In this document: in pieces, positions 30,474 through 62,159 of the stretch | Layout: every line of letters starts with the position of its first letter | How positions within the stretch are numbered: the first letter of the stretch is position 1 | Origin: an uncultured Candidatus Saccharibacteria bacterium | GTDB lineage: Bacteria > Patescibacteriota > Minisyncoccia > Phycocordibacterales > UBA9973 | Assembly (NCBI GenBank): GCA_964468315.1 | Contig: CAYXTA010000003.1 | Coordinates: 19,000 to 82,999 of the forward strand | Reading direction: 5' to 3' | Length of the DNA stretch: 64,000 nt | Translations under genes and position numbers: made by a program | The notes under the pieces: model-generated | Told to the model about the DNA's origin: nothing | The model's input: only the letters and a program-made list of their open reading frames with translations | The model's database searches: none

Positions 30474-30487
30474 AATAATTTTTTAAA

Positions 30488-32836
30488 ATGCAAAAACAAA
30501 TAATTAAAATATTAAAAGGTGTTATATTCTCTGTATTTTTAAGTATGAGTTTTGTTTCTGTTTATGCTTCTTGGACTGCACCTACAAATTCTGCCCCAAA
30601 TAATAATGCTACTGGTTATATTGATACTAGTTCAAGTAATCAAACAAAATCGGGACTTTTAGGAGCAGGTAATTTGTATTCAAATAATAATATATATGCT
30701 GGTCCAAATTCTTTTTCACAAAACTACCCTGGTACTTTGACTGGTGGATCTGTGGCGACAACATGGTTTTGTTTACCAATAGACACTACTGGTGGTTCTG
30801 GTGGTACAGGAGCTATTACTTTTATAAAGAAAATAATCTCTACAAATTTTGTAAACGCTGCAACAACAAATCCTTCAGCTAACGCCGACTGTATAACCAA
30901 ATGGGCTGACATTCTAGCAAATAACAATATTCTTTCTCTTCCAACAGGTACTATCTTAGGTCAAACATTATACTGGGACACAACAGCACCTGCTAAATGG
31001 AAAGTAAATAATATTTTTAAAATAAATCCTACTACTAACGTAGCTAGTGTTACAGGTAAATTAGATGTATCAAGCGATGTTACATTAAACGGAAACATTA
31101 TAGCTCCAACTCTTGCAAGTAAAACACTTTGTACAGATGCTACAGGTAAATTCATAGCTTGTGCAGGAGGTACAGCAAACCCAGGAGGAGTATTACCTCT
31201 TGGTACTTCTGAAGGACAAACATTATATTGGAGCAATACTACTCCTGTGCAGTGGAAGGCTACAGATGTATTGAAAGTACTTTCTTCTAACGGAAGAATT
31301 GTTACAAAAAATGCAAAATTAGATATAAATCTTTTAACTAAGAGTGGGGTTGCTGGCCGTAATGCTCTTTTTATAAATTCGAGTGCTGATAATGTAAATA
31401 GTACATTTATAACAAATACACCAACTTTTACACTTTTCGCAAACAGAATACAATATTCCGGTAATCCAGCTGGGCCAGCAGATATAATTGCTCGTGATTA
31501 TACTGGAAGAAATGGAACTTTCTCAACTTTAGATTCAACAACTAACCCAGGAGTTCTTTATCCAGCATTAGTTTGTAAACAAGCAACGGGTAAATTATTT
31601 CTTTGTCCAAGTCAATGTTATGACCATGTAGATAATGATTCTGATGGTTTTATTGATTTTCCTGCTGATCCTGGCTGTACATCTAGAACAGACAACAATG
31701 AAAGTGATCCTGTTCCACCACCTCCTATTCCTCAATGTTCTGATGGTATAGACAATGATGGAGATGGGCTTACTGATTACGTTGGTGGTGATTTCGGTTG
31801 TACATCTGTAAATGACAACGATGAAATTCATGCTCCAATTGTTCAATTGCTCGTCTCAGGTTTAGCTCCTGTTCCTAGTACTCCAATAACATATACTTCA
31901 ACATTTGGTCCTGGTGGCACAACAAATGCAATGGCTCTTTCATACCCAGCTAATATAATGAACATTTCATATGGAGGTATAATTATTAATGGAGTATTAC
32001 ACCCAGCTGGACCAGGGTATCCAGTACCTATATATCCAAATGTTACTAATTTGTCACCAAATACTATTTGTACGGCATCTGCAAAAGAATTAGGAAGCAA
32101 TAATGATGTGAGTGTTCTTTCAGGATGGACTGGTGTAAAAAATCCCTCAAATCCGTTTTTTGATTCTAGAATTTATCATTTTGGAATAACACAACTTACA
32201 CTTTCTTGTGATGCTGATGGAAATACTGCAACTACTGGTGATATAGGTTCTGGTTCTGCTACTGTTGAAATAAATGGAAGTGTTACTATTGGTTCGAGTG
32301 ATCCTACTAATGATGTTACTGGTTCATTTACTGTTCCTGGTAATATCCCAACCTTCAGTGTTACGTTGATTGGATCAGGAGGTGCTGGTGCCGCATATCC
32401 TAATAACGGACAGGACGGTACAAACACTAATCTTATGATCGGTACAACGACGATCGCTAGTGCACACGGTGGTTCCGGTGGAGGAAATAGCGCATCTTGT
32501 GGAATTAGCCCTAGTGCTCCTTGTGGAGGTGCTGGTTCGTCTGGTTCTGGTGCCGGAAGCTCTGGTGGTACTACAACAAAAGGTTGTGGAGGTAAACCTG
32601 GTGGAGGAGCACCACTTTGTGCTGGTGTATCATTAAATACATCAGGAACAAAAAACCCAGGTTATGGAGGTAATGGCCAAATAAATCATTCAGGAGGAGG
32701 TGGTGCAGGTGCTATATACTTTAATGGAGCTATTTCTAACCCAGGTACTGCTATTAACTATATAATTGGACGTGCTGGTATTGGTTTTGGAAATGTAAAT
32801 GATGGAGGACCTGGAGATATAAAAATTTCTTGGTAA
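30488..32836 (+). CDS. secreted protein, paralog B (782 aa) with Cys-flanked DxDxDG loops and Gly-rich C-terminal domain
   Basis: signal peptide; CYDHVDNDSDGFIDFPADPGC and CSDGIDNDGDGLTDYVGGDFGC; 150-aa Gly/Ser-rich tail. Confidence 0.8.
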   Translation: MQKQIIKILKGVIFSVFLSMSFVSVYASWTAPTNSAPNNNATGYIDTSSSNQTKSGLLGAGNLYSNNNIYAGPNSFSQNYPGTLTGGSVATTWFCLPIDTTGGSGGTGAITFIKKIISTNFVNAATTNPSANADCITKWADILANNNILSLPTGTILGQTLYWDTTAPAKWKVNNIFKINPTTNVASVTGKLDVSSDVTLNGNIIAPTLASKTLCTDATGKFIACAGGTANPGGVLPLGTSEGQTLYWSNTTPVQWKATDVLKVLSSNGRIVTKNAKLDINLLTKSGVAGRNALFINSSADNVNSTFITNTPTFTLFANRIQYSGNPAGPADIIARDYTGRNGTFSTLDSTTNPGVLYPALVCKQATGKLFLCPSQCYDHVDNDSDGFIDFPADPGCTSRTDNNESDPVPPPPIPQCSDGIDNDGDGLTDYVGGDFGCTSVNDNDEIHAPIVQLLVSGLAPVPSTPITYTSTFGPGGTTNAMALSYPANIMNISYGGIIINGVLHPAGPGYPVPIYPNVTNLSPNTICTASAKELGSNNDVSVLSGWTGVKNPSNPFFDSRIYHFGITQLTLSCDADGNTATTGDIGSGSATVEINGSVTIGSSDPTNDVTGSFTVPGNIPTFSVTLIGSGGAGAAYPNNGQDGTNTNLMIGTTTIASAHGGSGGGNSASCGISPSAPCGGAGSSGSGAGSSGGTTTKGCGGKPGGGAPLCAGVSLNTSGTKNPGYGGNGQINHSGGGGAGAIYFNGAISNPGTAINYIIGRAGIGFGNVNDGGPGDIKISW
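30877..31262 (+). repeat. 386-bp segment identical to 29774..30159
   Basis: see the paired repeat. Confidence 0.9.
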
Positions 32837-42564: not shown

Positions 42565-43539
42565 ATGAAAAAAAATATTATTTACAGTCCATTACTGGAT
42601 ATTGAAATCATGCGACTTTTACTGGATTATGTAAAAGAGTATGACCAAAAAGCTAATTTGGAATTTAAATCATCATCACCACTACAAGACATTTTGAAAG
42701 ACATTCCTATTGATCTTTATCAATCTGTGCAGGATTTAAAAGGTGAACCTTTTTTGTTTGAAAGTATTATTGGAGACCACTCCTCAAAGAAATTATTTGA
42801 TGCTTTTAAAGAAAGAAACAATTTTAGTCTTAATATTCCATTACCACCCAAACCTTTTGAAAATACTATTTTTGTTACGGCAGCAGCCATTATGGAATTC
42901 ATCCAGACATGGCCAGGTTTTTGTAGATCTAAAAAACAAAATTACAATATTGTAAAAGAGGATTCATTTTCTGGTACAGAAATAGAAGTTGCGGGTTTTT
43001 GTTTGCATAATGTGAATGTCGCGATTAAGACTGGAACACAAAGCACCGAAACAGTTTCAGCTACCCTTGAATTGGGTAATAATTTTTCTTTGAACTTTTG
43101 TGATTTATCTGCTTTTGAAAATGGAAAAAGCTTACGTGATGAAAAAGCCGATTTTGCAACACTGCTTAATTTGATAGATGTAAAAACAATTTCTTCACAC
43201 AAGAAGTCATACTTGTATTGTCCATGCATTGAAGTAAGTGAGAATGTAAAAAATCATTTAAAAGGATTGTCTTATAAAAACACAGTTTTAAATCCATTTT
43301 TGGAAAAAGTTGAAATTACTTTTTCTGAAACCTTTGGAAAATTAAAATTATCAGAGAAAGGTGTTGAAATGCGAGTTGAAACAGTTGCTTCTGCAAGAAT
43401 GGTTTTTAGTGCTAGGGCTACTCAGGAAACAACTCCACCACCTCTGGTTATTAAGAATGGTTTAGTTCTTCGTCTGTATCATGACGAAACACTTATTTTT
43501 ATTGCGTATATTCCGCAGGAAAATTTTCAAATAATTTAA
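42565..43539 (+). CDS. hypothetical protein (324 aa)
   Basis: ORF only. Confidence 0.5.
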   Translation: MKKNIIYSPLLDIEIMRLLLDYVKEYDQKANLEFKSSSPLQDILKDIPIDLYQSVQDLKGEPFLFESIIGDHSSKKLFDAFKERNNFSLNIPLPPKPFENTIFVTAAAIMEFIQTWPGFCRSKKQNYNIVKEDSFSGTEIEVAGFCLHNVNVAIKTGTQSTETVSATLELGNNFSLNFCDLSAFENGKSLRDEKADFATLLNLIDVKTISSHKKSYLYCPCIEVSENVKNHLKGLSYKNTVLNPFLEKVEITFSETFGKLKLSEKGVEMRVETVASARMVFSARATQETTPPPLVIKNGLVLRLYHDETLIFIAYIPQENFQII

Positions 43540-43544
43540 GTTAA

Positions 43545-43578
43545 AAGATCCGTTCCACACATTTGGGACGGATTTTTC
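43545..43578 (+). terminator. terminator (atccgttcc...ggacggat + T5)
   Basis: hairpin after stop. Confidence 0.5.
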
Positions 43579-43663
43579 TTTTGCCTATTTAACCCTCTTG
43601 CATTTTGTTTTTAAATATAGTATCTTACCCTTATAGCCGGAATGGCTATTTTATTTCATATAA

Positions 43664-44089
43664 ATGCCTACAATAAATCAATTAATTAAAAAGAGCCGAG
43701 TAATTACTCACAAAAAGTCAAAAGCTGTTGCTTTGGCTCGTGGTTTTAATACTTTAAAGAATAAACCAGTTTTCTACCCAGCTCCTTTCAAAAGAGGTGT
43801 ATGTACAAAAGTAACTACAACTACTCCAAAGAAACCAAACTCAGCTTTACGTAAAATCGCTCGTGTACGTCTTACAAATGGTATGGAAGTTACAGCTTAT
43901 ATCCCTGGAGAAGGACACAACCTACAAGAACACTCAGTTGTTATGCTTCGTGGTGGCCGTGTTAAAGACTTGATCGGAGTACGTTATCACATAGTTCGTG
44001 GTGTTCTCGATACACAAGGTGTTGAGAAACGAAGACAAGGTCGTTCACTTTACGGAAACAAGAAGCCTAAGAAGGATGCAAAGAAATAA
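43664..44089 (+). CDS. rpsL: 30S ribosomal protein S12
   Basis: [10 protein letters not shown]...[10 protein letters not shown]... Confidence 0.97.
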
Positions 44090-44105
44090 TTTTTAAATAA
44101 TATAT

Positions 44106-44576
44106 ATGCGAAGAAAAGTAAAAAATAGAAATATAGTAGGTCCTGATTTTATCTACAACTCTCAAAAGCTCGAGAAGTTTATTAACTATACTATGTGGTC
44201 TGGAAAGAAAGAGACTGCTCGTAAGATAATGTACAAAGCTTTTGATACTATCAAAGAAAAAACAGGTAACCCAAACCCTCTTGAAGTTTTTGATTTAGCT
44301 ATGAAAAACGCAGGCCCTCTTACAGAAGTACGTTCAAAGAGAATCGGTGGTGCAAACTACCAAGTCCCTCGTGAAGTAAAGCCTGATCGTAGACTCGCTC
44401 TCGCTATGAGATGGATTCGTGATGCAGCTCGCGCAAAGAAAGGTTCACCAATGCATTTGAAACTAGCCGATGAATTAATCGCAGCTTCAAAAAACGAAGG
44501 TTCAGCTATTAAGAAAAGAGACGATACTCACAAAATGGCAGAATCAAACAAAGCCTTCGCTCACTTCGCTTGGTAA
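44106..44576 (+). CDS. rpsG: 30S ribosomal protein S7
   Basis: canonical S7 sequence. Confidence 0.97.
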   Translation: MRRKVKNRNIVGPDFIYNSQKLEKFINYTMWSGKKETARKIMYKAFDTIKEKTGNPNPLEVFDLAMKNAGPLTEVRSKRIGGANYQVPREVKPDRRLALAMRWIRDAARAKKGSPMHLKLADELIAASKNEGSAIKKRDDTHKMAESNKAFAHFAW

Positions 44577-44590
44577 TACATTAAATTTTA

Positions 44591-44617
44591 AAAAATCCCC
44601 GAAAGGGGATTTTTGTT
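44591..44617 (+). terminator. terminator aaaaatccccgaaaggggatttttgtt (copy 1 of 2 identical)
   Basis: identical 27-mer recurs at 54614..54640. Confidence 0.7.
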
Positions 44618-44645
44618 TGACTATTTTAATTTTATTTGGTATTGT
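44617..44645 (+). promoter_or_regulatory. promoter TTGACT-17-TATTGT
   Basis: overlaps the terminator T-run; precedes leader repeat copy 1. Confidence 0.5.
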
Positions 44646-44648
44646 TTT

Positions 44649-44683
44649 TTTGAAATTAAAATAGTATAAACGTTATTTAAAAA
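44649..44683 (+). repeat. 35-bp leader repeat copy 1 (tttgaaattaaaatagtataaacgttatttaaaaa)
   Basis: identical to 45683..45717; ends 8 nt before the ATG. Confidence 0.9.
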
Positions 44684-44691
44684 TAGAAAAA

Positions 44692-45597
44692 ATGGAAAGA
44701 AAAAAAATAATGATGAAAGACATTGCCAACAATCCTCAATGTCGAGAATTGGTTAATGTGCACAACATGATTCAGATGCATTTTGAAAAATGCTTTAAGG
44801 AAGTGGGAATACCGATTCTTTCTTTTAGTACTGGTACAGCAAATTGCTTTAAAGAAATTTCGGAAATGACCGGTGTGTCTTTGGTTAAAACCTGTAGTTA
44901 TGATCAATTAAATATACCTGTTCCTTCTGTCGAAGGTCATGCGGGTAAACTTCATTTGGTACTTATTTTAGAAACACCAGTTTTCTTTTGTGAAGGTAGA
45001 GTTCAGCTTTCTGATGGATTTACTCCTGCAGAAGTAGTGCTCCTTACTCGTGCATTAGGATTGCTTGGTGTTAAAAAATCAATTTTTATCAATGCTTCTG
45101 GAACTGTAAACCTTGAAAAATATCAATCCGGTGATTTTGTACTTGTTTCGGATCATATTAATTTTTCTGGACAAAGTCCTTTGTGTGGTAGAGGCGCACC
45201 ATTTTTTGATAGCTTTACTGATTTATCAAAAGTTCACAATGTGTGTCTCCAAAAAGTTTTTATGGAAGTTGCTAAAACAATAAATATAAAAATTAAAAGT
45301 GGAGCGATATATGGTCTGACAAAAACAGCAAAAGAGTTTGAAACTCCCGCAGAAGTTAGAATGTTTAAAATGCTTGGTGTAGATTTGCTCGGCATGTCTT
45401 CAGTACTTGAATCGATAGCTTGTGTAAATATGGGTATTGAAGCAATGATTCTTTCTGTTGTGACTAATGAAGGTGTTGGGCTTGGTCCTTCAGTGAGTCA
45501 TGAGGAAAATCTTAAAATTGTTGAAACTTGTGGCAAACAACTTGCAAGACTTATTTATGGATTTGTAGATAAACTTGAGATTGTTGCTGAATCATAG
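44692..45597 (+). CDS. purine nucleoside phosphorylase (PunA/MTAP-type PNP family)
   Basis: GHAGKLHLV...LLGVKK.I.TNASG...DHINFSG.SPL.G...GP.FET.AE...LGVDLLGMSSVLESIAC pattern. Confidence 0.85.
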   Translation: MERKKIMMKDIANNPQCRELVNVHNMIQMHFEKCFKEVGIPILSFSTGTANCFKEISEMTGVSLVKTCSYDQLNIPVPSVEGHAGKLHLVLILETPVFFCEGRVQLSDGFTPAEVVLLTRALGLLGVKKSIFINASGTVNLEKYQSGDFVLVSDHINFSGQSPLCGRGAPFFDSFTDLSKVHNVCLQKVFMEVAKTINIKIKSGAIYGLTKTAKEFETPAEVRMFKMLGVDLLGMSSVLESIACVNMGIEAMILSVVTNEGVGLGPSVSHEENLKIVETCGKQLARLIYGFVDKLEIVAES

Positions 45598-45616
45598 TTT
45601 TAATATTTTTTTTTAC

Positions 45617-45648
45617 AAAACTCTGTCGTTTTTAGACAGAGTTTTTTT
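45617..45648 (+). terminator. terminator (aaaactctgtc-gtttttag-acagagtttt + T-run)
   Basis: 11-bp stem. Confidence 0.6.
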
Positions 45649-45650
45649 GT

Positions 45651-45679
45651 TTGACTTTTTATGACATATTTAGTATTGT
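45651..45679 (+). promoter_or_regulatory. promoter TTGACT-17-TATTGT
   Basis: same -35/-10 hexamers as 44617..44645, followed by leader repeat copy 2. Confidence 0.5.
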
Positions 45680-45682
45680 TCA

Positions 45683-45717
45683 TTTGAAATTAAAATAGTA
45701 TAAACGTTATTTAAAAA
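45683..45717 (+). repeat. 35-bp leader repeat copy 2
   Basis: identical to 44649..44683; ends 9 nt before the ATG. Confidence 0.9.
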
Positions 45718-45726
45718 CAAAAGACA

Positions 45727-46077
45727 ATGGAACAAAAACCAAAATTACCAATACCTAAGGATGTTATGTCTATTATTTTAAACCTTGAAGATTGTATTCA
45801 AAGGTTAGCAAGAGCAGAAATACCTTTTGAGTTGATTCACTTACTCACAACTCCTGTAAAAGAATTAGATGGTTTATCAGAAATTGCAAAAAACGCAGTT
45901 TATAAAACAACTGGTAAAAAAAATGAAAGCAATGAAGATATTTCTTTGTTTGACATTATCAAAAAAACCAAAAAAGATTTTTTAAAAACCATTAGGGTTG
46001 GTGAAGCTAGAGTAAAAGAAATTGAAGATTTTTTACGCTCACATGGCCTTGATTTCAAGCCAGAAAGAGCAGAATAA
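45727..46077 (+). CDS. stand-alone RNA polymerase alpha-subunit C-terminal-domain-like protein (116 aa)
   Basis: ELIHLLTTPVKELDGLSEIAKNAV and DFLKTIRVGEARVKEIEDFLRSHGL align to E. coli alpha-CTD [21 protein letters not shown] and [24 protein letters not shown]. Confidence 0.55.
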   Translation: MEQKPKLPIPKDVMSIILNLEDCIQRLARAEIPFELIHLLTTPVKELDGLSEIAKNAVYKTTGKKNESNEDISLFDIIKKTKKDFLKTIRVGEARVKEIEDFLRSHGLDFKPERAE

Positions 46078-46150
46078 ATTAAAAAATTAGGTGATAGTTT
46101 AGTTAAATTTGGTTAAGTTAAATTTAGTTGATTAAAAATCACCTATAAAC

Positions 46151-46180
46151 TCCCCTAGTTGCGTTAGGGGAGTTTTTTAT
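46151..46180 (+). terminator. terminator (ctcccct-agttgcgtt-aggggag + T6)
   Basis: 7-bp GC stem. Confidence 0.55.
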
Positions 46181-46181
46181 T

Positions 46182-46209
46182 TGACAAAATCTCCCAAAAG
46201 CGTAGAGTG
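46182..46209 (+). promoter_or_regulatory. promoter TTGACA-16-TAGAGT
   Basis: adjacent to the terminator. Confidence 0.45.
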
Positions 46210-46240
46210 AAATTAAACTAACCTTTTAAAACTTAAGAAA

Positions 46241-47113
46241 ATGAATAAAAATATGGACAATACAGTTGCTGAGTTTCTATCTCTAGAACCAGTTAAACGC
46301 AATGAATTATTTGCAAGAGAATATGATGTTTACCCAAATTTAAAATCACGAGCCAAACTCTTTTTATCTTTGCCGGTAGAAGAATCAGCTCGGATATTGT
46401 CTGAAGTTGATACTATTACGATGAATCAGTTTTTATTTGATCATATTTTTAAAATGCCAAATAAAAAACTTTTTGTTTTCAGTGAATTATTGCCGAAAGT
46501 TTTACCAATTGGTCGTTTAGTAGATTTAACTTTGGATTTAAATGGAACTATTCCTAGCGTTCAAGATTCTTTCTGCCTTATGCCTATTGAAACGATAACT
46601 GCAATTATTGATGAAGGTGTTTATGAAAATGAATTTCATGAAGAAAAAATAGGTGAAATTGCAAAAAAAATCGAATTTATTGAAATTGAAAAATTAAACA
46701 CAATACTTTTGAAAATAAAAGTAGAAAGTTTTAAGAAAATTGTTGAAGATACTTTTTTTTCTGGCTACGGCTTAGAGGGGAAGAAAAGAATATTGAACCA
46801 TGTTTCAATTCTTGAAGACAATAAAAGAATTGCAAAACTTTGCTTAGGAGTTAAAAAAGAAATTGCTCTGCGTATTGTTAAAGGAATCAAAGACAAACAA
46901 AAACAAAAACAAGTTTTAAAATTGCTTCCGCAAACTTACAAAGATTCATTTTTTAATAAAACTTCAAATTCAAAGAAAACTGTTTTAAGGGAATCTGAAA
47001 TTGATGTAACTAAGCTAAATATGAAAGCGAAAAAGAATTTCTTTAGAAGATTCCCTAAAAGTAAGCAAGTTTCAAAACTTTCAATTGTTGAAAAGATTGA
47101 AATATTTGCTTGA
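46241..47113 (+). CDS. hypothetical protein (290 aa)
   Basis: ORF only. Confidence 0.5.
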   Translation: MNKNMDNTVAEFLSLEPVKRNELFAREYDVYPNLKSRAKLFLSLPVEESARILSEVDTITMNQFLFDHIFKMPNKKLFVFSELLPKVLPIGRLVDLTLDLNGTIPSVQDSFCLMPIETITAIIDEGVYENEFHEEKIGEIAKKIEFIEIEKLNTILLKIKVESFKKIVEDTFFSGYGLEGKKRILNHVSILEDNKRIAKLCLGVKKEIALRIVKGIKDKQKQKQVLKLLPQTYKDSFFNKTSNSKKTVLRESEIDVTKLNMKAKKNFFRRFPKSKQVSKLSIVEKIEIFA

Positions 47114-47121
47114 TCTTGTTT

Positions 47122-47153
47122 AAAAGCCTGTCGCACATCTGACAGGCTTTTTT
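47122..47153 (+). terminator. terminator (agcctgtc-gcacatct-gacaggct + T6)
   Basis: 8-bp stem. Confidence 0.6.
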
Positions 47154-47155
47154 AT

Positions 47156-47184
47156 TTGCAAAAAAGCCTTAAATGTTTTATATT
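47156..47184 (+). promoter_or_regulatory. promoter TTGCAA-17-TATATT upstream of fusA
   Basis: read directly. Confidence 0.45.
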
Positions 47185-47255
47185 GTAAGTATTAGAGCTT
47201 TATCTTTTTAAGGCTTTTTATTTTGTTTATTTATCATTAATTATTAAAAATATAT

Positions 47256-49403
47256 ATGGAAAGAGACTATCCACTAGAGAAAGTTAGAAATATCGGAATT
47301 ATTGCCCACATTGATGCGGGTAAGACAACGACAACAGAGCGTGTGCTTTATTATACAGGTGTTTCACATAAAATAGGTGAAGTTCACGACGGAGAAACAA
47401 CTACAGACTGGATGGAACAAGAGCGTGAAAGAGGTATCACTATTACTTCTGCTGCTGTTACTTGTTTCTGGACGCCTACATATGCAGGAACTGATAAAAC
47501 AAAGAAACATCGTTTCAATATTATCGACACACCTGGACACATCGACTTCACAGTGGAAGTAAAAAGATCTCTCCGTGTTCTCGACGGTGCTGTCGTCGTT
47601 TTCGACGGTGTTGCTGGTGTAGAACCTCAATCAGAAACAAACTGGCGTTATGCTGATGAAGCAAAAGTTCCACGTATTTGTTTCGTAAACAAACTTGATC
47701 GTACAGGTGCAAGTTTCGAGCATTCATTTGCTACTATTCTTGACCGTTTAAATAAAAATGCTGTGCGTTACCAAATCCCTATTGGTTTAGAAGATCAACA
47801 CGAAGGTGTTATCGATCTTTTGAAAATGAAAGCTTACTATTTCGAAGGTGAAATGGGTAATAAAGTTATCGAAAAAGAAATTCCTGAAAATATGAAAGCT
47901 GATGCAGAAAAATATCATGCTGAACTTGTTGAAAAAATAGTTGAGACAGATGATGTAATGATGACAGAATACTTGGATGGAAAAATACCAAGTATCGATG
48001 TTCTTAAAAAAACACTTCGTAAAGCTGTTATTAATAATGACATTTTCCCAGTTTTCGCTGGATCAGCATTGAAAAATAAGGGTGTACAACTCGTGCTCGA
48101 CGCTGTCATTGACTATTTACCAGCTCCTACAGACATTCCTCCTATCGGTGGAATAAACCCTGATACAGAAGAAGCGATGGTTCGCCATGCTTCTGATATA
48201 GAACCTTTCTCAGCCCTTGCATTCAAGATCGCAACTGATCCATTCGTAGGACAAATTATTTTCTTCCGTGTATATTCTGGAACTCTTTCAGCTGGAAGTT
48301 ATGTTTACAATCCTAGAACTCGCAACAAAGAAAGAATCGGCCGTATCTTGCGTATGCATGCCAACGACCGTGAAGAAGTGAAACAAGTTTTCGCGGGAGA
48401 AATCGCAGCTGCTGTGGGACTTAAAGATACAATTACTTCAGATACTATATGTGATGAAGCAAATCCAATTATCTTAGATCGTATCGTTTTTCCTGAACCA
48501 GTTATTTCTCTACGTATTGAACCAAAAACAAAAGCTGACCAAGAAAAAATGGGTATGGCACTAAACCGTCTCGCTCAAGAAGATCCAACTTTCAAAGTTT
48601 CAACTGATCAAGAAACAGGAGAAACAATTATTGCGGGAATGGGAGAACTTCATCTTGAAATCATTGTTGATCGTATGAAACGTGAATTTTCTGTTGAAGC
48701 AAATGTTGGTAAACCACAAGTTGCATACAGAGAAACTATCACTGGTTCTTCAGAAGTTGAAGGTAAATATATCAAACAATCTGGAGGTCGTGGAAACTAC
48801 GGTCACGTAAAAATCAAAATCAAACCTATGGCACCAATGACAAAAGAGGAAGTTGCAGATCTACCTAAAAACGTAAAGAGAACAGGAGAATTTGAATTCA
48901 TAAACACAATCAAAGGAGGTGCTATTCCACAAGAATACATTCCTGCTTGTGAAAAAGGATTCAAAGAAGGTCTCGATCGTGGAATTCTTGCTGGTTTCAA
49001 AATGGTGAATGTTTCTGTTGATCTTTGGGACGGATCTTTCCACGAAGTCGACTCAAACGAAATGGCTTTCAAAATCGCTGCTTCGATGGCAATACAAGAT
49101 GCTTGTAAAATGGCTCGTCCTGTTATTCTTGAACCTATGATGAAAGTAGAAGTTGTTACTCCAGATAAATTCATGGGAGACGTTACAGGGTCACTTTCAG
49201 CAAAACGTGGAATCATCGAAGGTATGGAAGATCGTGGTATGAACAAAGTTGTAAAAGGCGTTGTTCCACTTTCTGAAATGTTCGGTTATATGACAAACCT
49301 TCGTTCTATGACAGAAGGTCGTGCAGGATTCACTATGGAATTCCTACGTTACGACATCGTGCCACAAAACGTAGCCGATACAATCATCGCTTCTAGAAAA
49401 TAA
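47256..49403 (+). CDS. fusA: elongation factor G
   Basis: [14 protein letters not shown]-domain and full EF-G length and motifs. Confidence 0.97.
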
Positions 49404-49424
49404 TTTTATAAAATTAAATTCACA

Positions 49425-49461
49425 AAAGCCCTGCCGGACATGTCCGGCAGGGCTTTTGCTT
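49425..49461 (+). terminator. terminator: perfect 28-bp palindrome agccctgccggacatgtccggcagggct + T-run
   Basis: read directly. Confidence 0.7.
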
Positions 49462-49463
49462 TA

Positions 49464-49492
49464 TTGACAAAAAACCATTTTAGCTCAATACT
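49464..49492 (+). promoter_or_regulatory. promoter TTGACA-17-AATACT
   Basis: adjacent to the terminator. Confidence 0.4.
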
Positions 49493-49552
49493 AGTGTTTA
49501 GATAGCAAATAGTGCTGTAATTTTTCTTTAATAACATTAAATAATTTAAAAA

Positions 49553-49711
49553 ATGAAAATATTGTTAATAATAAATATTTTTGAAAAAACTCTAGGACCT
49601 TTATGGTTTCTAATTATTTTTTTCAGTGTTCTAGCTTTGTTTATAGTCATTTTATTTAAACCTTGGCAAAAAAATAAAAAGCTTAAGCAACCAAAAAACG
49701 AAAGAAATTAA
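49553..49711 (+). CDS. possible small membrane protein (52 aa)
   Basis: MKILLIINIFEKTLGPLWFLIIFFSVLALFIVILFKPWQKNKKLKQPKNERN, one TM; below ORF-track cutoff. Confidence 0.3.
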   Translation: MKILLIINIFEKTLGPLWFLIIFFSVLALFIVILFKPWQKNKKLKQPKNERN

Positions 49712-49758
49712 AACTCACAAAAATTCACTAAATACTAAACAAAAAAACGCAAAAACGT

Positions 49759-50079
49759 ATGAAACACTTAGAGATTTTTACTAGATTGAAAAACGGAGAG
49801 ATTATTTTTATTGAAAGTTGTAACATTGAAAAGAAAAAATTCTTTGGTTCTACTCTTCATTCTAGAATTTTAAAATTAAAACATTACAAATTCGATGAAA
49901 TAGACGATTCTTGGAGTTTACTTGGTGATAATGAAAAATTAGAAATTCTAAAAAAGCATTATAAATCTTTAGATTATTATGATGTTAATTTAACAAGTAC
50001 AAAAACAAGACATAGTCTCCTTACGGATTCTATTCTAATACAACCTTTCTTAAACTCTCGTTCTAAAAAAGTTGCTTAA
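49759..50079 (+). CDS. hypothetical protein (106 aa)
   Basis: ORF only; sits between fusA and tuf. Confidence 0.4.
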   Translation: MKHLEIFTRLKNGEIIFIESCNIEKKKFFGSTLHSRILKLKHYKFDEIDDSWSLLGDNEKLEILKKHYKSLDYYDVNLTSTKTRHSLLTDSILIQPFLNSRSKKVA

Positions 50080-50096
50080 AATCTAAAACCAAAAAA

Positions 50097-50345
50097 ATGG
50101 AACCAAATGTATATGATCTTTCAAAAAGTTTTGTGAATAAAGAAAAGTCCTGTGTACATGTACCTGTTCAAATTTTTGGTCCCAGATCAAATTGGGTGGA
50201 CATTCCACTTGTTTTTGAGCTTTCTATTCTTTTGGAAAATCATTACAAGGATTTAATGTTTACTGGTAAGTATGCTGTACCACAAGAAAAAAAAATAAAA
50301 GAGTATCTTTTTTATTTTAAACAAAATAAAGCCGACCCGAAATAA
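50097..50345 (+). CDS. hypothetical protein (82 aa)
   Basis: ORF only; stop overlaps the terminator hairpin. Confidence 0.4.
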   Translation: MEPNVYDLSKSFVNKEKSCVHVPVQIFGPRSNWVDIPLVFELSILLENHYKDLMFTGKYAVPQEKKIKEYLFYFKQNKADPK

Positions 50346-50361
50346 AGGGCCGGCTTTTTTA
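50331..50361 (+). terminator. terminator (gccgaccc-gaaataaa-gggccggc + T6)
   Basis: 8-bp stem with one mismatch. Confidence 0.55.
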
Positions 50362-50362
50362 T

Positions 50363-50390
50363 TTGACAATGTTTTTTAATTTGCTATTAT
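50363..50390 (+). promoter_or_regulatory. promoter TTGACA-16-TATTAT, about 150 nt upstream of tuf
   Basis: read directly. Confidence 0.5.
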
Positions 50391-50539
50391 AGACCTAACT
50401 GCACTTTTGGCAGTTTTTATATTGCCGAAAGAGTAAAATTGTTTATAAAAATTTATTATTAGTTTTAATTAAGTTAGTAGTTAAGCCTTAGCGACTGGTT
50501 CTCGTACGTTAAGTTTTACTTATTAGCTAAAATAATCAT

Positions 50540-53760: not shown

Positions 53761-54600
53761 ATGAAAACATACAAACCGACAAGTAAATCAAGAAGACAAA
53801 TGACAAACATCAAATACCGTGATGTTTTGACTAAGACTACACCTGAGAAATCTCTTACTTATGGCTTCAAAAGAAGTGTAGGAAGAAATAATCTCGGACG
53901 TATTACTACTCGTCACAAAGGTGCTGGACACAAGCGCTTATTTAGAGATGTTGATTTCTTGTATAACAAAAAAGATATTCCTGCAAAAATAACAAGTATA
54001 GAATATGATCCAAACCGTTCATCATTCATAGGACTTGTTGTTTACAAAGATGGAGAGAAGAGATATGTCATATTGCCTCAAACGGTAAAACCAGGAGACA
54101 CTTTTGTTGTTTCAGAAAATGCTGAACTCAAAGTAGGTAATCGTTTAATGCTTAAGAATATACCTGTTGGTACTTTTGTATACAACATAGAAATGAAAGC
54201 AGGATCTGGTGCAAAGATAGCTCGTTCTGCGGGAATATTTGCTCAAGTTGTTGCTAACGCTGATGGATATACAAATATAAAAATGCCTTCATCTGAAGTT
54301 CGTAAAGTTTCTGAACTCGCTTGGGCATCTGTCGGTTCTGTTTCAAACGAAGAGCATCACTTAGAGAACTATGGTAAAGCAGGACGTTCACGTTGGAAGG
54401 GTATAAGACCAACAGTTCGTGGTACTGCTATGAACCCAGTAGACCACCCATACGGAGGAGGAGAAGGACGCCAAGGACGCGGAACACGTCGACCAAAGAC
54501 TATGTGGGGTAAGGTTACAGGAGGAAGAAAGACAAGAACTCCAAAGAAATACTCAAACGTATTCATCGTATCACGCAGAAAGACAGGAAAGAACAAATAA
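53761..54600 (+). CDS. rplB: 50S ribosomal protein L2
   Basis: canonical (GRNN.GRIT.RH.GGGHK...). Confidence 0.97.
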   Translation: MKTYKPTSKSRRQMTNIKYRDVLTKTTPEKSLTYGFKRSVGRNNLGRITTRHKGAGHKRLFRDVDFLYNKKDIPAKITSIEYDPNRSSFIGLVVYKDGEKRYVILPQTVKPGDTFVVSENAELKVGNRLMLKNIPVGTFVYNIEMKAGSGAKIARSAGIFAQVVANADGYTNIKMPSSEVRKVSELAWASVGSVSNEEHHLENYGKAGRSRWKGIRPTVRGTAMNPVDHPYGGGEGRQGRGTRRPKTMWGKVTGGRKTRTPKKYSNVFIVSRRKTGKNK

Positions 54601-54613
54601 TATTAAAACTAAC

Positions 54614-54640
54614 AAAAATCCCCGAAAGGGGATTTTTGTT
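54614..54640 (+). terminator. terminator aaaaatccccgaaaggggatttttgtt (copy 2 of 2 identical)
   Basis: identical to 44591..44617. Confidence 0.7.
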
Positions 54641-54736
54641 ATTACTATTGACTTTTTATTTTGTTTATGCTATTTTGTATTTAAATACTGCGAATGCCGA
54701 AAGCAGAGAAAAATCGGTTCATTTAAAAAATATATA

Positions 54737-55324
54737 GTGGAAACAACAACAATTCTTGGTATGTTGGGAGGATTGCTGTCTTTGATAGCATATTTTCCTT
54801 ACTGGTATTCGATTTTTACTGGACATACCCGCCCGCAACGCGCAAGTTGGCTTATTTGGATCTTTTCTGATTCTTTGGTACTAGCAACATCAGGTGCTCT
54901 TGGTGCAAGAGATAGTTTATGGGTTCCTGTTGCTTATGTTATTGGAACAATAATTACTTTTATTTTTTCAATTAAAAAAGGACAAGGAGGAACACATTGG
55001 TTCGATATAGTCTGTCTTGGTATAACTTTTATGTCTGGTGTGCTTTGGTACATCACAGGAAACCCTTTTCAGTCTCTTTTGATTAATTTAACCATAGTAG
55101 CAATTGGAACAATTCCAACCCTATTAAAGGTATCAAAAGATCCATATTCAGAAAATATGACAGGTTTTATTTTCTGGACATCTGGAAGTTTCTGTAGCTT
55201 TTTAGCGGTAATGCTTGGAAATCGAATAACCATAGAGTTATGGTTGCAACCTTTGTGGTTTCTTGGACTTCAATTTCTTATGATGATGTTTATTATCATA
55301 TATCGAAGTTTTAAACGGAACTAA
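54737..55324 (+). CDS. polytopic membrane protein (195 aa, about 6 TM)
   Basis: hydrophobic helices throughout; inserted between rplB and rpsS. Confidence 0.55.
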   Translation: METTTILGMLGGLLSLIAYFPYWYSIFTGHTRPQRASWLIWIFSDSLVLATSGALGARDSLWVPVAYVIGTIITFIFSIKKGQGGTHWFDIVCLGITFMSGVLWYITGNPFQSLLINLTIVAIGTIPTLLKVSKDPYSENMTGFIFWTSGSFCSFLAVMLGNRITIELWLQPLWFLGLQFLMMMFIIIYRSFKRN

Positions 55325-55369
55325 ATAGATTAAAATCCTCGGACTGATACAGTTCGGGGATTTTTTATT

Positions 55370-55780
55370 TTGTTATATAATGGTTGTATGGAAAAAATGT
55401 CAGAAAAGAAAAGGTTTTCATTGGTAGCTCGGGCGAAGAGTTTTACTCATGCGGTGCGAGGTGTTTTTGTTTTTTTGAGGAGTACACACAATGCATGGGT
55501 GCATTTATTTGTTACTTTTATTGTTTTATTTTTAGGATTCTTTTTTAATATTTCTGCGACAGAATGGATAGAGTTAATCTTCGCAATAGGTTTTGTTTTT
55601 GTAGCTGAGGCCTTCAATACAGCCATAGAAATAGACATGGATCTCACAAGTCCAGAATATCATCCTTATGCTCGTGATACGAAGGACGTAGCTGCTGGGG
55701 CAGTGCTTATAGCTGTGAAAGTTGCAGTACTCGTTGGTCTCATTATTTTTGTTCCAAAATTTATTTCTTTTTTTAGTTAA
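55370..55780 (+). CDS. dgkA: prokaryotic diacylglycerol kinase/undecaprenol kinase family (DgkA)
   Basis: RSTHNAWVH...VAEAFNTAIEIDMDL...RDTKDVAAGAVL pattern, 3 TM. Confidence 0.8.
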   Translation: MLYNGCMEKMSEKKRFSLVARAKSFTHAVRGVFVFLRSTHNAWVHLFVTFIVLFLGFFFNISATEWIELIFAIGFVFVAEAFNTAIEIDMDLTSPEYHPYARDTKDVAAGAVLIAVKVAVLVGLIIFVPKFISFFS

Positions 55781-55872
55781 AACTCATTTTTATTTTTGAC
55801 ATTTTTTTTGTTTAGGTGTATAAATGTATTGAAAAATAATTCTTTTATAAACCTTCTAAAAATGAAAAACCT

Positions 55873-56379
55873 ATGGGAAATTTCACCGGAACAATGAATC
55901 CTGTTGCAGACAATTTATTACTTAAAAGAACTCCTGATTTTGAACCTAAAAAACTAATTGATTTTGTTGAAAACAGGAATCAAAGACATGTAATTTTACC
56001 TAAAAAAAGGTTACGTAATAATATTTTAAAAAACCATGTAGACGCAAGGTTTAAAAAAAATTACGTTGATCAATCCACAAATGAAAAAACACGAAAAATC
56101 ATTTTAGAATCTGAAGAACTTGCTGAAAAGAAAAGTTACAAGTTTTTAAAAGAAATGAATAAGTGTTTTGATCAGTTATCAAAAAATGAGATTTTAGAAA
56201 TAACATCTCAAATCAAACTCCTTACCTCTAATAATTGGACTTATTTTTGTTACAAAAAAGACTTTATTTCTATTGCTCCTAAAAATAGAAAGATATATCT
56301 TCGTTCAAAGAAAAGAGAAATGGGTCCTGGTTCTCGTGTTTTTATAATTAAAGATATCGGTAAAAAGAAATTAAAATAA
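55873..56379 (+). CDS. basic hypothetical protein (168 aa)
   Basis: ORF only. Confidence 0.45.
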   Translation: MGNFTGTMNPVADNLLLKRTPDFEPKKLIDFVENRNQRHVILPKKRLRNNILKNHVDARFKKNYVDQSTNEKTRKIILESEELAEKKSYKFLKEMNKCFDQLSKNEILEITSQIKLLTSNNWTYFCYKKDFISIAPKNRKIYLRSKKREMGPGSRVFIIKDIGKKKLK

Positions 56380-56383
56380 ACTA

Positions 56384-56414
56384 AAAAGACCCTAAAAATA
56401 AAGGGTCTTTTTTA
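56384..56414 (+). terminator. terminator (gaccct-aaaaataa-agggtc + T6)
   Basis: read directly. Confidence 0.55.
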
Positions 56415-56415
56415 T

Positions 56416-56444
56416 TTGACATAGTCATTTTGATATGCTAATAT
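56416..56444 (+). promoter_or_regulatory. promoter TTGACA-17-TAATAT
   Basis: consensus-like hexamers. Confidence 0.55.
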
Positions 56445-56489
56445 ATATACGAAATAGTTATTTAATATAAACCATAAAACAAAAGACTT

Positions 56490-56960
56490 ATGAACATTAC
56501 GACTGCCGAAGTAAAAGAAAAAACATTTACAAAAGAAAATGGAATATGGACAATCCATCCGTACCAAAAACAATCAGAAATAATTAAGAGTTACAAAGAA
56601 TTAAAGGTTTTTGAAACAAAAGGTAATTTCTCAAAAGATTTTGTAGTGAATTCCAGTTACATTGGAATGAGCCCAATTTCCTTTGAAGAAACGAAAACAA
56701 GATCTCTTGTTTCTAAAAAAATAATTGAACGGCTTTATAATTTTGGATTTTATCCAGAAATTGAAATCGTAAAAATTGTAAATCATATTTTTATTAAAGG
56801 TGAAAGTAACATGTCATATTATTTTCGTTACCAAAGTTGTTTGTTTGGTTTATTAAAAACCAATCAAACAAACCGTAATTTTTTAAGAAAAGAAGAAATT
56901 ACAAAAAAGACTATCGTTCCGGATGGTGGAATTATTTTGGATTTAGTAAACAAAAATTAA
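56490..56960 (+). CDS. hypothetical protein (156 aa)
   Basis: ORF only. Confidence 0.45.
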   Translation: MNITTAEVKEKTFTKENGIWTIHPYQKQSEIIKSYKELKVFETKGNFSKDFVVNSSYIGMSPISFEETKTRSLVSKKIIERLYNFGFYPEIEIVKIVNHIFIKGESNMSYYFRYQSCLFGLLKTNQTNRNFLRKEEITKKTIVPDGGIILDLVNKN

Positions 56961-56965
56961 AAACA

Positions 56966-57100
56966 ATGGAAAATAATCAATTGTCTACTAAAGAAAAATC
57001 AAAAGAAATAAAACCGAAATTGATAACAGATTTGTATAATTTGGCTAATCAGCTAAATGAAACAAAGAAGATAACCAAAGTTTGTTTTGATTGGAATTAA
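56966..57100 (+). CDS. possible small protein (44 aa)
   Basis: MENNQLSTKEKSKEIKPKLITDLYNLANQLNETKKITKVCFDWN; followed by a terminator. Confidence 0.3.
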   Translation: MENNQLSTKEKSKEIKPKLITDLYNLANQLNETKKITKVCFDWN

Positions 57101-57110
57101 TGTTCAAGTG

Positions 57111-57142
57111 AAAAGCCCCACACATTTAGTGGGGCTTTTTTA
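57111..57142 (+). terminator. terminator (gcccc-acacatttagt-ggggc + T6)
   Basis: read directly. Confidence 0.6.
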
Positions 57143-57159
57143 TTTACCTTAAGTAGAAT

Positions 57160-57187
57160 TTGACTTTATTTTGTATTTTGCTATTAT
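57160..57187 (+). promoter_or_regulatory. promoter TTGACT-16-TATTAT restarting the S10-spc operon at rpsS
   Basis: lies inside the ORF-track N-terminal extension of rpsS, which supports the internal ATG start. Confidence 0.55.
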
Positions 57188-60399: not shown

Positions 60400-60969
60400 A
60401 TGAAACACATAACTGTAAAAGAAAAAGACGCTATGGCATTCGAAAAGATGAAAGGTCTTTTTGGCTACAAAAACAAAATGGCTGCTCCAAGACTTCAAAA
60501 AGTTGTTATCAATGTTGGTACTGGTACAGGTATCAAGAAAGATAAGAATCGCAATGAATTCATCTCTGGAAGATTAGAAAAAATCACAGGACAAAAAGCA
60601 GCACTCCGTGGCGCAAAGAAATCTATCGCATCTTTCAAAGTTCGCCAAGGTGACCCTATTGGTGTTATGACTACTCTGCGTGGAAAGAGAATGTTTGCTT
60701 TCGTTGAAAAGCTTATTAATGTTACTCTTCCTCGTACAAAAGACTTCCGTGGTATTTCTCGTAGAGTTGTGGATGATATCGGAAATATGACTATCGGCGT
60801 CAAAGAACACACAATATTTCCTGAAACAGCTGATGAAGATATAAAAGACGTTTTCGGTTTCGCTATCACTATCGTTTCTTCTGCTAAAACTAAAAAAGAA
60901 GGTACTGCATTCTTCGAACTCTTAGGTATTCCATTCAAGACTGAAGAAGATAGTAAAAAGAAGAAATAA
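60400..60969 (+). CDS. rplE: 50S ribosomal protein L5
   Basis: canonical. Confidence 0.96.
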   Translation: MKHITVKEKDAMAFEKMKGLFGYKNKMAAPRLQKVVINVGTGTGIKKDKNRNEFISGRLEKITGQKAALRGAKKSIASFKVRQGDPIGVMTTLRGKRMFAFVEKLINVTLPRTKDFRGISRRVVDDIGNMTIGVKEHTIFPETADEDIKDVFGFAITIVSSAKTKKEGTAFFELLGIPFKTEEDSKKKK

Positions 60970-60984
60970 AAAACTTTAAACTTA

Positions 60985-61016
60985 AAAAACACTCTTAGAA
61001 ATAAGGGTGTTTTTTA
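60985..61016 (+). terminator. terminator (cactctt-agaaat-aagggtg + T6)
   Basis: read directly. Confidence 0.55.
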
Positions 61017-61017
61017 T

Positions 61018-61046
61018 TTGACAATTTTTTATCTATATGATATATT
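61018..61046 (+). promoter_or_regulatory. promoter TTGACA-17-TATATT
   Basis: read directly. Confidence 0.55.
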
Positions 61047-61077
61047 GTATTCAAATAAACCTTAAAAAATTATAGCT

Positions 61078-61782
61078 ATGTTAGTAGAAAAAAGTACCTT
61101 ATTTGTGATTGCCTCAGTGGTATTATTTACCATTTATTGTCTTATTGTTTTTTTAATAAAAAAAGCAAGAAGATTAAAATTGTTCCGAATTGCCATTGAA
61201 AATGGCGTTAATGCTGATGTAAGAAATATCTTTGATCAGCTGGCTGTTGCTTCTGCAAAATTGAATGACCGGGAGTATAAATCACTTTTTAAATGTTTTG
61301 GTAGTATTTACGCAAAATCACTTACAGAATCATTGCAAGACTCTTCAATATTGATTGCTACACGATTAAGTTTCTTGAATAACTTTTTAAGTTATTACCC
61401 AAGAACTTTTATTTCACCCTTTGTTTGTTTAAAATTTGCAGAAGAGCTTCAAAATGATTCAAATAGTCGTTTGTTAGATTTACAAACTCTACATACGATA
61501 ATAAATCGTTTTGCTAATAATCCTGAAGAGAGTAATGAACATGATTATCGTAACGTAAGAGATTTATACATTGTTGTTTTTAATAAAGTCATCAATAAAA
61601 AACTTGAGGATATTTCTTTTAAAGACACGGAATCTTTTCTCTCTATTTTTAATAATTTCTTTTATATTAGTAAAGAAAATGAAATTCTTGCTGAGAATAT
61701 TCGTCAAAAAGCCAAAGAAGTACTTTATTTACGTGTAACCTCACTTGAGATTGAATTATTAAAAGAAAAAAAGGTTAGCTAG
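61078..61782 (+). CDS. membrane-anchored hypothetical protein (234 aa) inserted between rplE and the S14 gene
   Basis: N-terminal TM LFVIASVVLFTIYCLIVFLI; no recognisable domain. Confidence 0.5.
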   Translation: MLVEKSTLFVIASVVLFTIYCLIVFLIKKARRLKLFRIAIENGVNADVRNIFDQLAVASAKLNDREYKSLFKCFGSIYAKSLTESLQDSSILIATRLSFLNNFLSYYPRTFISPFVCLKFAEELQNDSNSRLLDLQTLHTIINRFANNPEESNEHDYRNVRDLYIVVFNKVINKKLEDISFKDTESFLSIFNNFFYISKENEILAENIRQKAKEVLYLRVTSLEIELLKEKKVS

Positions 61783-61803
61783 CTCAAAACACAGACACAT
61801 CTT

Positions 61804-61838
61804 AAAACCCCGCCACAAAAATGTAGCGGGGTTTTTAT
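61804..61838 (+). terminator. terminator (ccccgc-cacaaaaatgta-gcgggg + T5)
   Basis: read directly. Confidence 0.6.
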
Positions 61839-61867
61839 TTGACTATTTTTAGAGCTTCTGCTAGTAT
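61839..61867 (+). promoter_or_regulatory. promoter TTGACT-17-TAGTAT restarting the spc operon
   Basis: read directly. Confidence 0.5.
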
Positions 61868-61973
61868 AGAGGAGTTCCTCATTTAGGTTGATCTGTATTT
61901 CTCCTTAAGGCTTTTTAAAAGGTTTTAAGAAAAAATACAAGATATCACTTAGAAAAAGGACGATATTTTAATT

Positions 61974-62159
61974 ATGGCAAAAACATCAGTCGTCGCGAGA
62001 GCGGCAAAAAAGCAAAAGTTTTCTACACGGGTTAAAAACCGATGTTTTCGTTGTGGTCGTGGAAACGGTTTTATGAGAGATTTCGGTATTTGCCGTATCT
62101 GTTTCAGAGAACTAGCAAACGAAGGTATGCTTCCAGGTATCCGCAAGTCATCTTGGTAA
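61974..62159 (+). CDS. rpsZ: 30S ribosomal protein S14 type Z (zinc-binding)
   Basis: 61 aa; CFRCGR...CRICFRE. Confidence 0.95.
   Translation: MAKTSVVARAAKKQKFSTRVKNRCFRCGRGNGFMRDFGICRICFRELANEGMLPGIRKSSW

Follow-up and report, generated by a model that had tools for sequence, protein, structure and literature searches.

In a stretch of 64,000 nucleotides from an uncultured bacterium (hereafter the window, meaning the whole stretch), the str-cluster genes rpsG and fusA are separated by three others: a gene for a purine nucleoside phosphorylase (PNP), one for a 116-aa protein predicted to resemble the C-terminal domain of the RNA polymerase alpha subunit (alpha-CTD) and one for a 290-aa protein. 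The first two are preceded by the same perfect 35-nt sequence. The question raised by this locus is why two such different genes carry an identical leader and what kind of block they form. An earlier sequence-only reading had taken the leader for a candidate shared regulatory RNA element or operator and the block for an accretion of mobile or duplicated gene cassettes. Our answer is that the block is likely to be a strain-variable gene islet made of recurrent terminator-promoter-leader junctions between rpsG and fusA. For a dedicated riboregulator or operator we found no evidence, and some evidence against it. The processes involved, namely promoter-leader duplication, gene conversion and a replacement islet, are all known.

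The best matches of rpsG from the window species in 185,579 reference genomes were metagenome-assembled genomes of Candidatus Nomurabacteria and Paceibacterota, with up to 92% identity; the source appears to be a Nomurabacteria-like member of the Patescibacteria (Candidate Phyla Radiation, CPR). Contigs for comparison were fetched via homologues of the 116-aa protein and of PNP. Two loci, L001 (Joint Genome Institute, JGI) and L002 (NCBI), are from the same species as the window. The close relatives are L008-L013 and L094-L099, whose flanking DNA is 91-98% identical to the window; amino-acid identity in rpsL and rpsG is 99-100%. All coordinates follow the window numbering; the genes, direct repeat, terminators and promoter-like sites of the islet (43664-47255) are on the + strand.

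The direct repeat and the junctions of the islet

The 35-mer TTTGAAATTAAAATAGTATAAACGTTATTTAAAAA occurs exactly twice in the window (44649-44683 and 45683-45717). No further copy was found there even when three mismatches were allowed, and 100 shuffles gave 0 matches. As the sequence-only reading had described, both copies begin 3 nt past a promoter-like site TTGACT-17-TATTGT, which exact-repeat and promoter scans confirmed. The upstream site (P1, 44617-44645) has TG before the -10 and the downstream site (P1') lies at 45651-45679; both satisfy the sigma-70-type spacing of 16-18 nt between -35 and -10. The 35-mers end 8 nt (copy 1) and 9 nt (copy 2) before the ATG codons at 44692 and 45727, and form the cores of the predicted leaders of the PNP gene and the 116-aa gene, respectively.

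Each 35-mer sits as a perfect core within one arm of a longer direct repeat (44601-44711 and 45635-45745; 111 nt, 77% identity) that spans the terminator T-run, -35, -10, leader and first codons. This anatomy supports the description of the 35-mer as a duplicated promoter-proximal leader, transcribed by prediction. Both copies are also present in the independent assemblies L001 and L002, so the duplication is not an assembly artefact. Outside the window a degenerate 35-mer pattern, which does detect its target on the fetched loci, gave 0 matches in the 185,579 reference genomes, among which the source organism is not included; the count that had been proposed for the whole genome therefore covers the 64 kb of the window, with two copies. 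Two pattern scans of the JGI metagenome collection also gave 0 matches and are uninformative, since L001, a JGI contig with the exact pattern, evidently lies outside that collection.

That the str cluster is interrupted between rpsG and fusA was confirmed by gene calls, and the proposal that each inserted gene has its own terminator and promoter is supported by predicted hairpins and promoter-like sites. After rpsG lies a terminator-like hairpin, AAAAATCCCC-GAAA-GGGGATTTTT with a T-run (T1, 44591-44617), found by repeat search and kept in L008-L013 and L094. A count of this 27-mer, also suggested earlier, returned a second identical copy in the window after rplB (54614-54640; the terminator scan lists it at 54610-54641). 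The hairpin after PNP, CTCTGTCG..GACAGAG (T2, 45617-45645), is common to L012. A third terminator (T3, 46147-46175) opens the P2 module (46147-46240), and a fourth (T4, 47122-47151) together with the fusA promoter and leader forms the conserved right border of the islet (47122-47255), near-identical in L008, L009 and L011. T2, T3, T4 and the rplB counterpart of T1 all have the GC-containing hairpin and T-run of an intrinsic terminator, and the region is rich in terminator-like sites, with 31 where 8.4 would be expected.

The junctions recur. In the relatives the islet terminators belong to a family CCTGTCG-N-CGACAGG, found before non-homologous genes, of which T2 is a diverged member. The P2 module consists of a terminator, TTGACA-16-TAGAGT and then GAAATTAAACTAACCTTTTAAAACTTAAGAAA; it precedes the 290-aa gene in the window and, by blastn, several non-homologous genes in the islets of relatives. 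At all islet junctions the T-run is fused to TTGAC. Recombination that would shuffle the islet could plausibly act on these common sequences.

Upstream of fusA the predicted -10 of that gene lies between the arms of a perfect 13-bp inverted repeat (47161-47173 and 47207-47219), which is present with one mismatch in relatives and has a T-run behind it. The repeat could act as an attenuator-like hairpin for read-through transcripts.

Slot configurations and the perfect leader core

The first position after rpsG is found in three configurations. In L008-L011 and L013 (configuration A) rpsG is followed by T1, P1, a 111/116-aa gene, 16 nt and a 63-aa gene. In L094-L099 (configuration B) P1 is followed by the PNP gene, 16 nt and the 63-aa gene, without any homologue of the 116-aa gene. 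The window, L001/L002 and L012 (configuration C) carry a tandem of T1, P1, the PNP gene, T2, P1' and the 116-aa gene. The genomes of configurations A and B have a single P1 unit and those of configuration C have two, which flank the added gene as in a segmental duplication. Because the same P1 stands before the first gene in every configuration, the unit belongs to the slot; and because the tandem holds both alternative occupants, each with its own P1, the window contains the 111-nt repeat. The commonest state in the genus is the 111/116-aa gene directly after rpsG, with PNP as an alternative or additional occupant. The exchange is near-exact to the open reading frame (ORF), the leader and the 16-nt downstream spacer being kept.

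The remaining islet content varies from genome to genome. L012 (configuration C) and L010 (configuration A) are contigs from consecutive runs of one study (ERR14064713 and ERR14064715). Across rpsG their DNA identity is 100%, and the similarity is lost at T1 and the -35. One population thus contains more than one form of the islet, whose left border lies at the terminator-promoter junction. The three islet genes are absent from all 80 fetched GTDB rpsG loci. Accretion of genes, as proposed in the sequence-only reading, is therefore supported by content that varies between genomes with 91-98% identical flanks; three equal insertions are not, since there is one slot with alternative occupants and the 290-aa gene is confined to this species. 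The comparison of the rpsG-fusA junction in relatives, likewise proposed there, did reveal varying content, with the first slot occupied in all configurations.

Variable content at a fixed site, with direct repeats flanking the PNP gene, would also be expected of a mobile element or an integron-like cassette array in which the repeats are recombination sites or a target-site duplication. We consider this extremely improbable, and the mobile cassettes of the earlier reading were not borne out: in the window and in its relatives alike, no islet gene gave a Pfam or NCBIfam match to an integrase, transposase or recombinase domain, and an inverted-repeat search returned only low-complexity pairs besides the terminators, with no terminal inverted repeats. 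The repeat is moreover a resident promoter-leader, present as a single copy in one-gene genomes, and its exact pattern is absent from the 185,579 reference genomes.

The identity of the two 35-mers was examined in an alignment of ten P1 units from the window and its relatives, in which the -35 is invariant and the -10 largely so. At positions 10-16 the other 111/116-type leaders, five in number, all have AAAT-TAA (...AAAT-TAATATAAAC...); of the four PNP-type leaders, three carry TAG at 14-16. The leader of the 116-aa gene in the window reads AAAA-TAG, exactly as the PNP copy of the window does (A at position 13, G at position 16), and it keeps the 116-type promoter spacer, the 'TCA' after the -10 and the 3' end. 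In the tandem of L012 the two leader copies differ at 5 of 35 positions. By a rough estimate (0.77^35) a perfect 35-nt run within a 77%-identical repeat would arise by chance at about 1e-4 per position.

An identity block with copy-specific flanks, derived bases shared by paralogous copies at two informative sites, and diverged copies in L012, which shares the duplication, are the marks of gene conversion. The perfect core is quite probably a short conversion tract, copied from the PNP copy onto the 116 copy in the window lineage; conversion is here a mechanism that we infer from the pattern of bases. Identical copies are also the default expectation of a young duplication, and if the whole unit had been duplicated very recently in the window lineage, no conversion would be needed. 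This is very unlikely and largely refuted. The arms are strongly diverged outside the 35-mer (in the spacers, the 3 nt after the -10 and the 3' ends), and each resembles its own orthologues in other genomes. The tandem and T2 are common to the window and L012, in which PNP is only 76% and the 116-aa protein only 66% identical to the window versions, so the duplication is old.

Leader structure and the start-codon-anchored motif

An identical leader could also be a dedicated cis-regulatory site, either a DNA operator or a protein-binding site on the RNA, selected for co-regulation of PNP and the alpha-CTD-like protein and possibly bound by the latter. The perfect run inside a repeat of only 77% identity speaks for such a site, as do the decamer TAGTATAAAC, common to four leaders in the window, and an AACGTT palindrome in the 35-mer core. 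The predicted fold of the 116-aa protein could be added, its structural matches including complexes of alpha-CTD with UP elements and AT-rich DNA; alpha-CTDs bind AT-rich DNA. Several observations speak against it. In L012, which has the same tandem, 5 of 35 positions distinguish the two copies, and strains without any 116-aa gene still have the box in front of PNP. Orthologous 35-mers differ from that of the window at 3-5 of 35 positions, including a 1-nt deletion, while the adjacent rpsL-rpsG DNA of the same relatives is 92-96% identical; the 35-mer is therefore not unusually constrained, and orthologous leaders change at least as fast as neighbouring coding DNA. In an alignment judged by eye, R265 of Escherichia coli alpha-CTD falls on a variable, non-basic position of the 116-aa family. 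We regard a dedicated site as decidedly doubtful, and gene conversion accounts better for the perfect identity on which the operator proposal was built.

A perfect 13-bp inverted repeat (44620-44632 and 44653-44665) brackets the -10 of the PNP promoter and could be counted in favour of an operator. It was rejected as one and is probably due to chance, since it occurs in one copy only and is absent from the second copy and from all relatives.

The leader RNA was folded in six variants, as had been proposed, and no structure beyond that of shuffled sequences was predicted (z -0.87 to +0.98). The minimum free energies were 0 to -1.4 kcal/mol for the window and down to -3.3 kcal/mol for relatives. 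Rfam returned only chance-level matches over 43400-47400 (E 0.44-0.93, far below gathering scores), none of them on the 35-mer, and at the gathering threshold four tRNAs alone were found in the whole window. The regulatory RNA element of the earlier reading accordingly gained no support.

The four occurrences of TAGTATAAAC in the window all lie at -24 to -31 of four different start codons, those of the PNP gene, the 116-aa gene, a 324-aa gene at 42565 and a 101-aa gene at 1814. With the P1 units masked, the looser motif TAAAC-N(1-8)-T[AT]AAA occurs 16 times on both strands of the window. Six of these occurrences are within 45 nt of a start, against 0.43 expected, and all six begin at -22 to -27. 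The most enriched hexamers upstream of starts (ACCTTA, CCTTAA, CTTAAA, GTATAA, ATAAAC and AACCTT) jointly spell the same motif. Its distance to the nearest -10 box varies from ~5 to ~40 nt; with the distance to the ATG fixed, the motif is anchored to the start codon and not to the promoter. We know of no description of TAAAC..TTAAA at -22 to -27 in the literature.

The 50 nt ahead of start codons are depleted of Shine-Dalgarno-like tetramers, of which there are 11 where 30.6 would be expected, and these form no peak at -15 to -5. The intercistronic junctions in the ribosomal-protein operons read TAATTTTAAATA..ATG. The depletion and the junction sequence together suggest that initiation in this genome is independent of the Shine-Dalgarno sequence. 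In its 3' half (TATAAACGTTATTTAAAAA) the 35-mer would then contain the local version of a generic translation-initiation-region motif of the genus. The possibility, named in advance as one that would undo the regulatory proposal, that the 35-mer is a generic promoter-proximal motif is thus partly realized: its core is a variant of a leader motif that stands before unrelated genes, and the full 35-mer stands before two.

Part of this leader might instead be promoter. A TAGTAT/TAATAT box inside the 35-mer fits TAnnnT and could be the -10 of a second or sole promoter, which would leave a true leader of only ~18-20 nt; in related Paceibacteria loci the hexamers most enriched in the 40 nt next to starts include TAGTAT, TATACT and TATAAT, which suggests that short leaders are common. 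Most copies, on the other hand, lack a TTG-type -35 at 16-18 nt, TTGACT-17-TGnTATTGT upstream is a much better match, L010 and L011 read TAATAC and have lost the final invariant T, and the TAAAC..TTAAA motif keeps its distance to the ATG and not to any -10. We consider the internal -10 unlikely.

The strain-variable islet can be put together as follows. Each gene between rpsG and fusA would be a separate expression unit, joined to the next by a recurrent junction module of an intrinsic terminator whose T-run is fused to a TTGAC -35, a -10 and an A/U-rich, unstructured leader of ~40 nt without a Shine-Dalgarno sequence. P1 would serve the first slot and drive the alpha-CTD-like 111/116-aa gene, the PNP gene or both, depending on the strain. 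The window lineage has PNP with its own T2 upstream of the 116-aa gene, each gene with a copy of P1; once the tandem existed, a short conversion tract most likely overwrote the 116-type leader with the PNP-type sequence. The role of P1 is probably no more than to let transcription, and translation independent of a Shine-Dalgarno sequence, begin for any ORF placed behind it, as a general-purpose and not a gene-specific element.

Several points weigh against this account. Conversion rests on two informative positions and one sister lineage (L012), and selection for identical leaders could give the same pattern. The PNP and 116-aa gene trees disagree with the slot configurations, which makes the order of events among A, B and C uncertain. 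The P1 and P1' promoters, with the activity and transcription starts predicted for them, are consensus matches in a region where promoter-like sites are not enriched overall (63 against 53.7 expected), so that the case for the predicted promoters is limited to consensus and conservation. Counts of the generic motif come from a single 64-kb window and a crude set of ORF calls; in more distant Nomurabacteria loci the motif showed no enrichment, being either genus-specific or sought in too small a sample. The TAnnnT box, finally, could be a second -10, and part of the 'leader' would then be promoter.

A bolder reading can be attached to the same observations. The TAAAC..TTAAA box would be an undescribed initiation signal that replaces the Shine-Dalgarno sequence, possibly with the alpha-CTD-like protein reading the AT-rich unit, and the P1 and P2 modules would be plug-and-play expression slots and homology anchors for near ORF-exact swaps within the ribosomal-protein supercluster. 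Taken jointly, these two ideas are a long shot.

Islet genes, surroundings and comparison with known systems

The left flank of the islet consists of rpsL (43664-44089) and rpsG (44106-44576), identified as ORFs and by Pfam on the identical genes of L001; fusA (47256-49403) is on the right. The product of rpsL, S12, has 141 aa and, by eye, an extra segment of ~15 residues near the N-terminus; the usual length of S12 is ~124 aa.

The PNP gene (44692-45597; 301 aa) matches PF01048 (E 2.8e-27; 96 bits against a cut-off of 25). The NCBIfam PunA and PNP models score best, as expected from the earlier PunA-type assignment, at 165 and 161 bits, which is below their curated cut-offs of 218 and 197. 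Only four close clusters were found (75-99% identity), the next best match being 37% identical. The gene product is a divergent, putative PunA-type enzyme.

The 116-aa protein (45727-46077) had been called alpha-CTD-like, which is borne out by weak sequence matches and by a structural search with a predicted model. NCBIfam RpoA matches at E 0.002, and the PDB profile matches are all RpoA (E ~0.04; overall range 0.002-0.05); no Pfam family, PF03118 included, matches at E <0.1. In an AlphaFold2 model of moderate confidence (pLDDT 69) the top 36 Foldseek matches in the PDB are all alpha-CTD, with a template-modelling (TM) score to the target of 0.65-0.84. Superposition on Bacillus subtilis alpha-CTD gave a root-mean-square deviation of 1.9 A over 73 columns (TM to target 0.75-0.84). 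The protein thus has a predicted alpha-CTD-like (helix-hairpin-helix) fold, in a family restricted to the genus: only four matches were found in 1.84 billion representatives, one of them (E 1.3e-5) a 1031-aa protein (P0130) of eleven tandem PF03118 repeats.

The 290-aa protein (46241-47113) has no Pfam or NCBIfam match, and its only homologue in 5.8 billion proteins is its own cluster; it is an ORFan of this species.

The sequence-only reading took rpsL-rpsG-fusA-tuf to be normally contiguous. In this lineage it is not, and a split str cluster is common: of 56 related Patescibacteria genomes measured for the rpsG-fusA gap, 23 have 300 bp or more and 16 have 1 kb or more, and of 35 measured for the fusA-tuf gap, 33 reach 300 bp and 22 reach 1 kb. 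The rpsL-rpsG junction stays tight, with a median gap of 33 nt. In the window the fusA-tuf gap (49404-50539) holds small ORFs of 52, 106 and 82 aa, kept in close relatives. The S10/spc block is interrupted as well (53761-57171 and 60400-62159), by a membrane ORF, a diacylglycerol kinase gene (PF01219) and two hypotheticals after rplB and before rpsS, and by a 234-aa ORF after rplE. The break after rplB starts with the same 27-nt terminator as the one after rpsG, and so do the orthologous sites in L094.

Between an M50 peptidase gene and rpsL lies the 324-aa ORF (42565-43539), without a family match and absent from L008-L010, L094 and L097; its TAGTATAAAC box is 24 nt before the ATG. Farther upstream, a 300-nt perfect direct repeat (29774-30073 and 30877-31176) and a 145-nt repeat at 83% identity (region 29617-31176) sit inside the adjacent large ORFs 29457-30473 and 30488-32836, and look like the result of a recent duplication or conversion of a protein segment.

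The setting is a modest curiosity: an islet in a CPR ribosomal-protein supercluster, with near ORF-exact swaps behind a conserved leader that has no Shine-Dalgarno sequence. A streamlined uncultured bacterium would here equip a newly placed gene by re-using a copy of its neighbour's promoter and leader, and a supposedly rigid ribosomal-protein block accommodates an islet that varies between strains and has its recombination borders, which are sharp, at terminator-promoter junctions. Two warnings follow: perfect short leader repeats can be conversion tracts and not regulatory elements, and assumptions of ribosomal-block synteny, as made in binning and phylogenomics, are not strictly valid here. 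The start-codon-anchored motif in a Shine-Dalgarno-depleted genome is a modest lead on translation initiation in Patescibacteria. Literature searches on how Patescibacteria and CPR use the Shine-Dalgarno sequence, on the synteny of their ribosomal operons and on PNP in Nomurabacteria returned nothing relevant.

Among known systems, the classical str operon (rpsL-rpsG-fusA-tufA), found in E. coli and most other bacteria, has the same gene order and orientation, and rpsL and rpsG are adjacent and probably co-transcribed here too; unlike it, the window has separate terminator-promoter units, with non-ribosomal genes in the rpsG-fusA and fusA-tuf gaps, an arrangement that is usual and not exceptional in this lineage. 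Structured 5' leaders such as the purine riboswitch, ribosomal-protein leaders and PyrR sites would suit the position upstream of a nucleoside-salvage gene near ribosomal genes, whereas the islet leader has neither an Rfam match nor a predicted structure. The 116-aa protein shares with RNA polymerase alpha-CTD (PF03118) the predicted fold and a weak but consistent sequence similarity; it differs in being free-standing, with an extra N-terminal helical part, in lying below Pfam detection and in DNA-contact residues that are partly unconserved.

A/U-rich regions that support initiation independently of the Shine-Dalgarno sequence are known from Bacteroidetes-type initiation and from S1-dependent enhancers. 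The islet resembles them in its unstructured A/U-rich leader, in the depletion of Shine-Dalgarno-like motifs and in a motif at a fixed distance from the ATG. The putative TAAAC..TTAAA initiation motif, in contrast, is seemingly restricted to this genus. Concerted evolution by gene conversion between nearby repeats is familiar from tufA/tufB and rRNA operons; the perfect block, diverged flanks, derived bases shared by paralogues and divergent copies in a sister lineage are alike, whereas the tract here is tiny (at most 35 nt, two sites), non-coding and in a promoter-proximal leader.

Integron cassette arrays also hold ordered, exchangeable ORFs at one site, but the islet has no integrase, attC sites or single common promoter, each gene having its own promoter and terminator. 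Replacement islands and variable islets likewise show non-homologous genes in one slot, near-identical flanks, a sharp border and alleles uncoupled from the backbone. Unlike them, the islet described here lies inside a ribosomal-protein supercluster, its border is a terminator-promoter junction and the swap is near-exact to the ORF.

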